Positions 19,802 through 21,525 are shown, counted from the first letter of the stretch. The stretch is 64,000 nt of DNA from Cyanobacteria bacterium auto_48_18 (GCA_036170915.1 JAVHQC010000025.1:1-64000), one strand, 5' to 3'. Translations and numbers: made by a program. The notes: a model not told the origin generated them from the letters alone.

Positions 19802-20815
19802 GTGGCGACAGTGTTACAGCCTGAAATTGAATCTATTGCTGTACCTGAAGCGCTCTCTAAGCTGCGACGTTTTTCTATGGATCGAGCACTTTTATTGTTC
19901 GATAGAGACAGTGGTTTAAATGCTCTGTGTGAAGGGACAGAAACTGCCCATCTTCGACTGATGGCTCCGCGCGTGGTTCAGTTCGGCATTACTAATCGCT
20001 GCAACCTCGCTTGCACTTTCTGCTCTCGTGATTTAACAGCAGACTCGGCCTGGACTGTCGATTCCGCCTTCAATTTCTTGGCCGAGTTAGCAAACTGGGG
20101 TGTTTTGGAAGTTGCTTTCGGTGGTGGCGAACCCTGGCTCTTTCCAAATTTTGCCGATTTGATCAATCGACTCTATGATCAAACACCATTAGCAATAAAT
20201 TTCACCACTAATGGGCTGGCATTGTCGGCTGCCAGACTTTCGCAAATTCGTGGCAAATATGGTCAAATCAGACTGTCTCTGTACGACAACAATGACTGGC
20301 GACAAAAAGTAGCAATGCTTGTGCAAGCCGAGGCTCGCTTTGGTGTTAATTACCTGGTGACCCCAATGCGCTTGGCGCAACTAGAAAAAACCGTCTTTGA
20401 ACTGACTTCGCTAGGTTGCCGCGACATTCTTCTTCTAAGCTATAACGGCGCCGACCACACAATGCACTTGAGCACAAACGAGAACGCCGACTTAAGACGG
20501 CGAGTAGCGGTTCTGGCCAAAATATTACAAAATCAATGCCAGCTAAAACTCGACGTTTGCTGGGGTGAACGCATGGCTGGAATAGATCGTTTATTTGAGA
20601 AAAATGACTGTGGTGCTGGTCGAGAATTTATTGTTTTGACCAGCGAGAAACAACTCCAACCATGTAGTTTCCACCAATTGAAAATTCCAGTTGTCGATGC
20701 TAAACAGGTAATGGATCTTTGGCATAACAACCAGGAGCACCTAGATCAAGCTTCGGTGCTGCCTGGCTGTGCCCGATTGCCTGACTACGGATTAGCTTCT
20801 GCGGAGCAACAATGA
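19802..20815 (+). CDS. radical SAM protein with C-terminal Cys-containing (twitch/SPASM-like) extension
   Basis: ITNRCNLACTFC (CxxxCxxC), FGGGEP, TTNG, C-terminal CGAG...PCSF...GC. Confidence 0.93.
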   Translation: MATVLQPEIESIAVPEALSKLRRFSMDRALLLFDRDSGLNALCEGTETAHLRLMAPRVVQFGITNRCNLACTFCSRDLTADSAWTVDSAFNFLAELANWGVLEVAFGGGEPWLFPNFADLINRLYDQTPLAINFTTNGLALSAARLSQIRGKYGQIRLSLYDNNDWRQKVAMLVQAEARFGVNYLVTPMRLAQLEKTVFELTSLGCRDILLLSYNGADHTMHLSTNENADLRRRVAVLAKILQNQCQLKLDVCWGERMAGIDRLFEKNDCGAGREFIVLTSEKQLQPCSFHQLKIPVVDAKQVMDLWHNNQEHLDQASVLPGCARLPDYGLASAEQQ

Positions 20816-21525
20816 AGATTAAGATCTGGAATGCTTTTGCCAGCAACAATAGCGGCAGCTATACGATTGTCGGAAGTTTCTCGAATAAAGAATTAGCATC
20901 AGAAATTGCCCTTGAGCTGAAAGATTTGATGCAAGCGCACACTGATTGGTTAGAGGATAGCAATTCAATCGCGCCTTCTCCGTTGCATACATTTGTTGAA
21001 CAAAAAAGTCTCACTCCGGATCCAGAGATCGGCACCAGTGACAACTGGCCAGAGCACAGCCAGAATATCTCACCTCAGGTAATGGCTATCGACTATCAAG
21101 TTGTCATTCATCACCACTACACAGTCACACTACCTGCCTTATTTGGCGAATATTTTTACGCGCGCGGTGGGCGAGTAGAGACAGAATTGAACCACGCTCA
21201 CAATTCGGTGATCGGAATTTTCAATATATATCAAGAATATCAAGGTCACTGGAAGCCAGGCGTGTCCGCAAAGCTTGCTGCATTGTTAGCGGAGCTGCAA
21301 TCTGACGGTGGTCCATTTTCCGCTAGCAATAGAGCTATATCTTGGGAAGCGGGAAAAATGGAAAATTTTGATTTGACCATTGCAGCAGTCTTCGACGATT
21401 TGCTTGAAGGTTTTACGGCAATCAACAAAGCCGTTCAAGCTCAGAACCTAACTATGAACCTGCAAATCATGGAGGCCTTTACCAAAGACGATCCGTTAGG
21501 ATTTATTCGCCCTTTGATGAAGTAA
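20812..21525 (+). CDS. hypothetical protein, radical SAM partner (N-terminal FASNNSGS motif)
   Basis: 237 aa ORF in ATGA overlap with the radical SAM gene. Confidence 0.85.
   Translation: MKIKIWNAFASNNSGSYTIVGSFSNKELASEIALELKDLMQAHTDWLEDSNSIAPSPLHTFVEQKSLTPDPEIGTSDNWPEHSQNISPQVMAIDYQVVIHHHYTVTLPALFGEYFYARGGRVETELNHAHNSVIGIFNIYQEYQGHWKPGVSAKLAALLAELQSDGGPFSASNRAISWEAGKMENFDLTIAAVFDDLLEGFTAINKAVQAQNLTMNLQIMEAFTKDDPLGFIRPLMK

Follow-up and report, generated by a model that had tools for sequence, protein, structure and literature searches.

A radical SAM enzyme and its serine-tagged partner in Cyanobacteria bacterium auto_48_18: an undescribed variant of the Avap1-Avap2 kind

The closest described relatives of the gene pair considered here are Avap1 and Avap2, two helper proteins of the anti-phage KpAvs2 operon of Klebsiella pneumoniae S_15PV, of which Avap1 is a radical S-adenosylmethionine (SAM) enzyme and Avap2 corresponds to DUF6375 (PF19902) (Bechon et al. 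2024, PMC11564622). According to that paper, Avap2 binds Avs2 and is required against SECphi18, Avap1 is required against T2 and dispensable against SECphi18, and deletion of Avap2 failed in the presence of Avap1 and KpAvs2; Avap1 expressed alone gave no defence, viperin-type nucleotides were not found, and the roles of both proteins were left open (PMC11564622). Here we analyze a 64,000-nucleotide stretch of DNA from Cyanobacteria bacterium auto_48_18 (GCA_036170915.1 JAVHQC010000025.1:1-64000; hereafter the window), in which a gene for a radical SAM enzyme overlaps a gene for a partner protein that begins with a serine-containing tag (Table 1). The pair is genuine and, as a variant of Avap1-Avap2, undescribed; that kind is itself known but unexplained. 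A sequence-only reading of the window had proposed a new modification system; the linked module is real, but it is distantly related to the Avap1-Avap2 pair already in print, a kinship that the reading had missed and that makes the pair not wholly new. The open-access literature, when searched by motif or keyword, contained no description of the window family or of the tagged phage proteins treated below, and on DUF6375/Avap only the Avs2 paper and its preprint were relevant.

Avap1 was represented in all comparisons by Avap1-type proteins from six fetched loci rather than by the Klebsiella protein itself; the third gene matched Avs2 in all five of these loci that were scanned. The enzymes are homologous (HHalign 99.8%, E 1.3e-27, 263 columns): the family profile gave the six Avap1-type proteins 74-109 bits vs 43 for SkfB, and the Avap1 profile ranked the window gene first in its own genome with 101 bits (next 25). 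Domain 1 of the partner was aligned to DUF6375 by HHalign at 90.2% (E 1.6e-6, 116 columns, the full length of DUF6375) using deeper alignments and at 40% over 29 columns using shallow ones; H128 aligned to a conserved DUF6375 histidine, and 30 column-shuffled controls reached at most 11.8%. PF19902 gave no Pfam match for the window partner, and three distant homologues matched at or below the cut-off. By sequence comparison, then, the partner is homologous to DUF6375 but is not a family member by cut-off. The tags are in register (W-x-x-Y-G-S-E-H-S in Avap2, W-x-x-F-A-S-N-N-S in the partner), and the Avap2 DNA in the supplement, translated by eye, starts M-K-I-W-N-G-Y-G-S-E-H-S in the same register (PMC11564622). 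The 4-bp gene overlap is also shared, having been found in the four Avap1-Avap2 plasmid records examined.

There are also differences. No Avs2 was found in the Pfam-scanned flanking genes (146 of 186, the 40 left out being nearly all duplicates or housekeeping genes) or in the organism's own 86%-complete genome, and lon follows the pair in the window. The window enzyme has four auxiliary cysteines that are absent in Avap1, the partners of its family are 237-357 residues long and include a second domain, frequently followed by an L7/L12-like one (Avap2 is ∼131 residues), and enzyme-partner fusions are frequent in the family. Because Avs2 is missing both nearby and from the genome as assembled, we regard the window pair as a stand-alone sister branch rather than a duplicate of that operon. 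Nothing among the 146 flanking genes, which were miscellaneous by Pfam, pointed to a defence island; no PADLOC scan of them was made. Among the Avap1-Avap2 operons collected, two (L073:5397-10372 and L072:5402-6519) had a downstream region broken by IS3 elements, and a planctomycete Avap1-Avap2-Avs2-like operon (L427:478-3688) lay behind an AbiEii-like nucleotidyltransferase gene (by eye), its Avap2 tag reading G-A-E-H-S-S.

Linkage of the two genes was examined from both sides. Partner homologues numbered 234 in a word-indexed search and 668 at E ≤0.001 in a profile search, of which the best 150 matches were listed, one PKD-repeat protein among them being a false positive. Searching GTDB with the partner gave 56 loci, in hosts belonging to Obscuribacterales, Myxococcota and Planctomycetota, and in every one the enzyme gene lies upstream in the same orientation. 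Five of these loci were fusions, 26 had 4-bp overlaps, two had 1-bp overlaps and 19 had gaps of 2-15 bp; the rest comprised a 50-bp gap, a 47-bp overlap, one locus with an intervening gene and one with tandem partners. No third gene was conserved in the 56 loci. Linkage and motif are both conserved beyond chance: beside the 56 linked loci, NNSG was present in 121/121 proteins (120 hits plus the query). The pair is thus supported as an obligate module. Distances between enzymes and partners were correlated (Mantel rho 0.53, 53 of 56 pairs), a value that is confounded by kinship and was not used.

An enzyme-first search of metagenomes placed 20 of 80 loci in the enzyme clade, 14 of which show the tag, seven of these as fusions; of the other six, four end ≤57 bp from the enzyme open reading frame (ORF) and two are broken enzyme genes in which the partner was not seen. 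A further 47 of the 80 loci were at background score (37-47 bits) and had no tag. The Myxococcota loci returned had the enzyme in 30/30 cases, fused in 15. The spread is patchy, with matches in 11/107 genomes of the order and 32/401 Myxococcota (14 strong), and the enzyme in 4/401 Planctomycetota (one of Avap1 type); these counts are lower bounds, since scoring covered just a few candidates in each genome. Natural single-chain fusions of enzyme and partner are ∼530-760 residues long. Several (L409-L423, L318-L324, L329) form a common clade of ∼700-residue proteins, many from Myxococcota, with mostly Gly at tag position 11 (F-S-G-N-N-S-G-D/E-C) and a ∼350-residue C-terminal part without a Pfam match. 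Two other loci (L010:5016-6969, L311:5018-6582) carry two tandem partner paralogues behind one enzyme gene, resembling a small phage array.

Conservation of the tag was assessed from 257 hits, of which 230 cover it, the other 27 being fragments or false hits. N12 and S14 were unchanged in 230/230 homologues and G15 was retained in 227; position 13 was N in 227 and H in three, position 11 was S in 221, G in eight and C in one, and position 9 was F in 183, Y in 38, H in four, W in four and R in one. The equivalent of Ser14 was also present in DUF6375 (115/115) and in the phage tags described below (198/198, a count partly set by the search pattern). Across all branches only Ser14 is constant, position 9 being F/Y/H/W/R, 11 S/G/C/A/T, 12 N/E/S, 13 N/H/S and 15 G/A/S/M/T/D. 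When the partner was folded alone (predicted local distance difference test (pLDDT) 89), its first 14 residues were disordered, with pLDDT <50 at residues 7-11; in a model of the natural fusion L055, pLDDT <50 occurred exactly at S-N-N-S (residues 322-325), between strands 313-318 and 327-333. The S-N-N-S loop is predicted from these models to be a flexible tip between two strands, and a peak of conservation within a disordered loop fits a ligand for another protein. The tag is internal in the fusions, 21-29 residues past the last cysteine, so a free N-terminus is not required.

Two further groups carry comparable tags. A branch of enzymes without the auxiliary cysteines has its tagged gene upstream (L330, L333, L340), with tags W-I-Q-H-A-S-S-H-S and F-R-P-S-S-H-S; two members of the branch had no tagged gene in the DNA examined. 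Its loci (L330:3381-4912, L333:2299-3871, L340:1959-3430, L335, L336) lie among small uncharacterised genes. On a quick, unrooted tree the window enzyme stood beside Archangium (97), and Avap1 grouped with the upstream-tag branch (87). The second group is from phages. Uncharacterised proteins of the form MKIR..F.(T/S)NSSS, mentioned in the sequence-only reading, do exist, share the tag register and often adjoin a four-cysteine radical SAM gene: the MKIRxxFV(S/T)NSSSSSF family comprised at least 156 stretches and 198 distinct tagged proteins (up to 11 different per 8 kb), and among 80 loci with flanks, which overlap and are not independent, 34 had a radical SAM gene of one type as detected by a phage-specific profile. 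The distance of the tag from Met1 was as in Avap2 in 197/198 proteins, and the phage enzyme, aligned at HHalign 98.5% over 278 columns, shares the four cysteines as well as the F-D-x-x-x-G extension, although a generic SPASM control scored nearly as high (97.8%, 205 columns). Phage loci also differ in being arrays of many short, varied tagged proteins, with partner-level scores of ∼11 bits. Common ancestry of the phage branch with the window enzyme family is likely on these alignments, yet less secure. Viral contigs searched with the partner yielded no relative, and those searched with the enzyme yielded 80 generic radical SAM loci at ≤46 bits, in which 10 pattern matches were internal and not tags; a jumbo-phage review had no passage mentioning 'radical'. 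We tentatively suggest, as a somewhat doubtful extension, that the window family is the bridge by which Avap1/Avap2, the upstream-tag branch and the phage arrays belong to a single superfamily, a portable system of a 'radical SAM writer' and a serine tag.

The enzyme itself matched PF04055 at 40.8 bits (cut-off 29.5) and reached no specific NCBIfam family (best 48.6 bits vs cut-offs ≥170). The radical SAM superfamily is marked by CX3CX(aromatic)C and GGE motifs in a partial (beta/alpha)6 barrel, and the corresponding C67, C71, F73 and C74 together with GGGEP were invariant in 59 aligned homologues, as were R22, L31, F33, R35 and G38 of the N-terminal extension. The extra C-terminal cysteines that had been picked out by eye (in CWG, CGAG, PCSF and GC) are real, correspond to C253, C270, C288 and C323, and show the same invariance. 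The L055 model (pLDDT 91) has a three-stranded sheet (residues 3-7, 10-14 and 20-25), then a barrel, then a hairpin and helix. Its best structural matches were SkfB (Z 22.6, root-mean-square deviation (rmsd) 4.0, 294 aligned), SuiB (Z 22.0, rmsd 3.2, 286 aligned) and PqqE (Z 20.4, rmsd 3.1, 249 aligned), with the SkfB and SuiB alignments beginning at model residue 1 and running from the N-terminal sheet into the auxiliary-cluster region. Weaker matches were obtained to the anaerobic sulfatase-maturating enzyme (anSME; Z 18.8, rmsd 3.3, 265 aligned), viperin (Z 18.7) and pyruvate formate-lyase (PFL) activase (Z 12.9). On this model the enzyme is structurally closest to the peptide-modifying SkfB, SuiB and PqqE.

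The twitch/SPASM comparison of the earlier reading holds in the form of a Twitch-like region, predicted to carry a single auxiliary cluster. Twitch is the half of SPASM that carries one cluster, and a RiPP recognition element (RRE) consists of three helices and three strands, the leader peptide adding to its sheet (PMC6231123). A Twitch layout was found in the hairpin and helix of the homologue model and the four C-terminal cysteines, which are placed as in the published layout (also for SkfB and SuiB), namely one in the linker, two flanking the hairpin and a last one behind the helix (PMC6231123). The Gly of the Twitch motif CX9-15GX4C is replaced by Lys/Arg, the SPASM Pfam gave no match, and the seven-cysteine SPASM motif, with its CX2CX5CX3C for a second cluster, is absent from a chain that has four C-terminal cysteines and stops 14 residues past C323. 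The RRE helical bundle is missing from the homologue model, which has the three strands only. We predict a Twitch enzyme with a helix-less RRE-like sheet, its cluster likewise predicted, and the sheet may be the docking site for the partner's first strand. Differences from SkfB and SuiB include a sequence identity of 17%, the absent RRE helices, NCBIfam scores far under the cut-offs, and a putative substrate that is a loop of a folded protein rather than a leader-core peptide, with no protease or exporter nearby. Assignment to viperin/pVip was rejected: NF038283 gave 39.7 bits vs a cut-off of 180, and the PADLOC pVip matches cover the core only (residues 57-160).

Within the partner, the best structural match of domain 2 was a designed ferredoxin fold (Z 8.9, rmsd 2.9, 82 aligned), and the fold searches, made with domain 2 only, returned generic ferredoxin-like matches; by secondary structure, strands and helices follow the same order in domain 1. 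The partner has no match of its own in Pfam, NCBIfam, PHROGs or PADLOC and none among solved structures by sequence, and is without any cysteine. The homologue P0040, searched against the ESM Atlas, matched unnamed viral clusters only (0.78-0.85), and these are no more than leads. Many relatives add a domain resembling the L7/L12 C-terminal domain (PF00542) behind domain 2, the window partner being without it, and a C-terminal extension of ≥55 residues was present in 32/56 loci; distant members carry a propeller plus BRCT or unnamed domains instead, and in one protein (P0375, 706 residues) the tag domain, with C-N-N-S, is joined to a zinc ribbon, a BNR propeller and a BRCT domain. Histidine clusters had been singled out in the initial reading. 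Across 236 domain-1 sequences the claim stood for NHAH, with H128 in 218 and H130 in 216, but the other cluster histidines were mostly variable (H43 in 155, H100 in 168, H101 in 103, and the H102 position usually Asp, Pro, Glu or Gly). A ferredoxin-like topology, if domain 1 has it, would place H128, at the end of the last strand, next to S14-Y17 at the start of the first.

A mechanism can be proposed in which the enzyme would bind the first strand of the partner and abstract a hydrogen from the residue at the S-N-N-S loop tip, Ser14; this serine would become formylglycine, an aldehyde, beside its predicted neighbour His128. Domain 1, once modified, would be reactive or could be switched, while the choice of cellular machine would fall to the variable back end (domain 2, an L7/L12-like domain or another one, and Avs2 in the Avap branch). 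The fixed linkage, the fusions, the exposed invariant loop and the peptide-maturase fold neighbours are our reasons for taking the loop as substrate and Ser14 as the residue attacked. On this evidence the partner is probably the substrate, with the enzyme modifying its tag, while attack at Ser14 in particular we put slightly short of an even chance. A serine C-beta radical may be oxidised to formylglycine, as in anSME chemistry, or eliminate, as in DesII-like chemistry. On the precedent of DesII, no auxiliary cluster is needed to oxidise a serine C-beta radical, so that the cluster-less Avap1 branch could share the chemistry. For a modified Ser14, formylglycine is the most plausible product, but taken overall its chance against a cross-link or a cut in the backbone is well short of even, and the mechanism taken whole has an even chance at best.

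The comparison with anaerobic sulfatase maturases, made at the outset, survives as an analogy: anSME and AtsB make formylglycine from a Ser or Cys within a protein by oxidation, and the same chemistry is proposed for the window enzyme. The sulfatase-type substrate motif is C/S-x-P-x-R, and the partner has neither this motif nor a sulfatase fold. The likeness does not extend to the second cluster motif, which is absent from the window enzyme; anSME has two auxiliary clusters (PMC6231123), vs the four C-terminal cysteines here.

Several observations weigh against modification of Ser14. The residue following C288 is Ser, rather than an Asp base as in anSME (Asp277), and the auxiliary cysteines are absent in Avap1 and in the upstream-tag branch, so the chemistry may differ by branch. 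The fusion model leaves its two halves unfixed relative to each other (predicted template modelling score 0.63). Two enzyme-clade members (L332, L334) had no tagged gene in the DNA examined, and His128 is missing in 18/236 sequences, some merely truncated, and is Asn in one Avap2 (L427). The invariance of the tag motif is in part a selection effect of the profile and pattern searches. Finally, KpAvs2 with Avap2 defends against SECphi18 without Avap1, so unmodified Avap2 works there (PMC11564622).

This last point leads to the main rival, in which the tag would be a plug or docking peptide and the partner would quiet the enzyme or carry it to its real target (a protein, RNA or small molecule), with release or delivery activating it. 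Linkage and fusion could be explained by binding alone, viperin is only ∼4 Z units below SkfB, and the L7/L12-like tails and rtcB neighbours (see below) point to a target beyond the pair. The undeletable Avap2 beside Avap1 and KpAvs2, its binding of Avs2 and its activity without Avap1 against one phage agree with such a role, whereas the lack of defence from Avap1 alone and of viperin-type nucleotides does not (PMC11564622). Phage loci with up to 11 tagged proteins per 8 kb fit many substrates better than many plugs, and the retention of one side chain across all branches suggests chemistry. We consider a plug or adaptor role improbable overall, though a serious minority view.

If the tag is instead modified, as we favour, a cross-link is an alternative product, either an F9-S11 three-residue cyclophane or a bond joining Ser14 or Asn12 to His128 or to an aromatic residue close by. 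Three-residue cyclophanes of FxS type form between an aromatic residue and Ser. In accord with a cross-link, F/Y-x-S/T is the commonest form in the window family, DUF6375 and phage tags, the nearest folds (SuiB, PqqE, SkfB) are cross-linking enzymes, and the mass change would be -2 Da, as for formylglycine. Position 11, however, is Gly in 8/230 homologues and in 13/15 fused Myxococcota loci, and position 9 is His or Arg in 5/230; since Gly has no C-beta, an F9-S11 link could not be general, and we judge cross-linking of the tag unlikely. Triceptide maturases act on an invariant aromatic and a C-beta-bearing residue two positions later, and the same counts at positions 9 and 11 led us to reject a triceptide type. 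A glycyl radical is less probable still. Glycyl radical enzymes hold their glycine in a flexible loop, and G15, conserved in nearly all homologues and lying in such a loop, could accept a stable radical from the enzyme acting as an activase, the partner being a small radical enzyme. Position 15 is nevertheless Met in DUF6375, Ser in phage tags and Thr/Asp in the upstream-tag branch, PFL activase is a weak structural match, and the partner lacks cysteine as well as a glycyl-radical barrel, which together make this explanation highly improbable.

Re-reading of the sequence reproduced both ORFs, their coordinates and the ATGA overlap as first described, with the partner ATG (20812-20814) overlapping the enzyme TGA (20813-20815); the enzyme start may be at 19811, because the database copy is 334 residues long. 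The divergent protease gene and the convergent lon gene were likewise found as described. The divergent 407-residue protein has a marginal PF07737 match (28 bits vs cut-off 27.4, over 64 residues); its gene is present in L003 and missing from the same position in five related loci (L005, L007, L008, L058, L312), which probably reflects a recent gain or loss. In the same five loci a homologue of the 621-residue protein gene, on the same strand, ends ∼30 bp before the enzyme gene and may be co-transcribed with it. The description of the pair as a stand-alone unit thus applies to the window and L003 but not to these five. Each of the two genes has one match in its own genome, their nearest relatives are from Obscuribacterales, and GC content shows no break at the pair. 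Promoter and terminator scans gave results at chance level.

Table 1. Positions of the features discussed; coordinates refer to the window unless a locus is named.
Feature	Position	Strand	Remarks
Gene for 621-residue protein	16538-18403	+	No Pfam or NCBIfam match
Divergent neighbour	18418-19641	-	407-residue HExxH zinc-protease-like protein
Radical SAM enzyme gene	19802-20815	+	337 residues, GTG start; PF04055, alignment, HHalign, fold matches of homologue model
N-terminal extension, residues 22-45	19865-19936	+	F-D-R-x-x-G-x-N; predicted three-stranded sheet
CX3CX2C (C67, C71, C74)	20000-20023	+	Predicted motif of SAM-cleaving [4Fe-4S] cluster; invariant in 59/59
C253, C270, C288, C323	20558-20770	+	Predicted ligands of one Twitch-type auxiliary Fe-S cluster; invariant in 59 aligned homologues
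GGAG and ATGA stop/start overlap	20803-20815	+	GGAG (ribosome-binding-site-like) at 20803-20806
Partner gene	20812-21525	+	237 residues; tag and two alpha/beta domains
Partner domain 1, residues 1-130	20812-21201	+	Homologous to DUF6375/Avap2 by sequence; ends E-L-N-H128-A-H130; H128 at 21193-21195
Tag W6-Y17 (WNAFASNNSGSY)	20827-20862	+	Ser14 (proposed target) at 20851-20853
Partner domain 2, residues 131-223	21202-21480	+	Ferredoxin-like fold (structural match); absent from Avap2
lon	21552-23948	-	Convergent on pair
RNA-repair operons ending in the pair	L015:25-4846, L019:1-4165, L021:2172-6975, L043:3174-6741, L314:266-3626		rtcB with rtcR, rtcA or HD-domain gene

The only recurring neighbour of the pair was rtcB, which was directly upstream on the same strand in 5/99 loci, a minority context that the window does not share. 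A divergent rtcR was present in three of these loci and rtcA in one; rtcB abuts the enzyme start in L019, and the quick tree separated L043 from L015 and L019. Together with the L7/L12-like tails, rtcB hints at a role in translation or RNA damage, although the window has neither, and the Avap kinship and patchy spread hint at a role in conflict. Our leading guess is that the pair may act in stress or conflict, either at the translation apparatus or in defence against phages.

To our knowledge, few radical SAM enzymes modify folded proteins. The present comparison ties three branches to one testable serine, with a predicted change of -2 Da, and the natural fusions join the enzyme and its candidate substrate in one chain. 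If the proposal is true, the mark that a single compact enzyme leaves on a short, portable tag would count as a new post-translational modification, and an aldehyde product might serve for labelling. The same result would also account for the many unannotated phage proteins with a serine-rich tag at their start. Should the superfamily hold, enzymes of one type would equip one serine in each of many different folded proteins with a new reactive group; bacteria would employ this in immunity and in the repair of RNA or ribosomes, and phages on proteins of their own.

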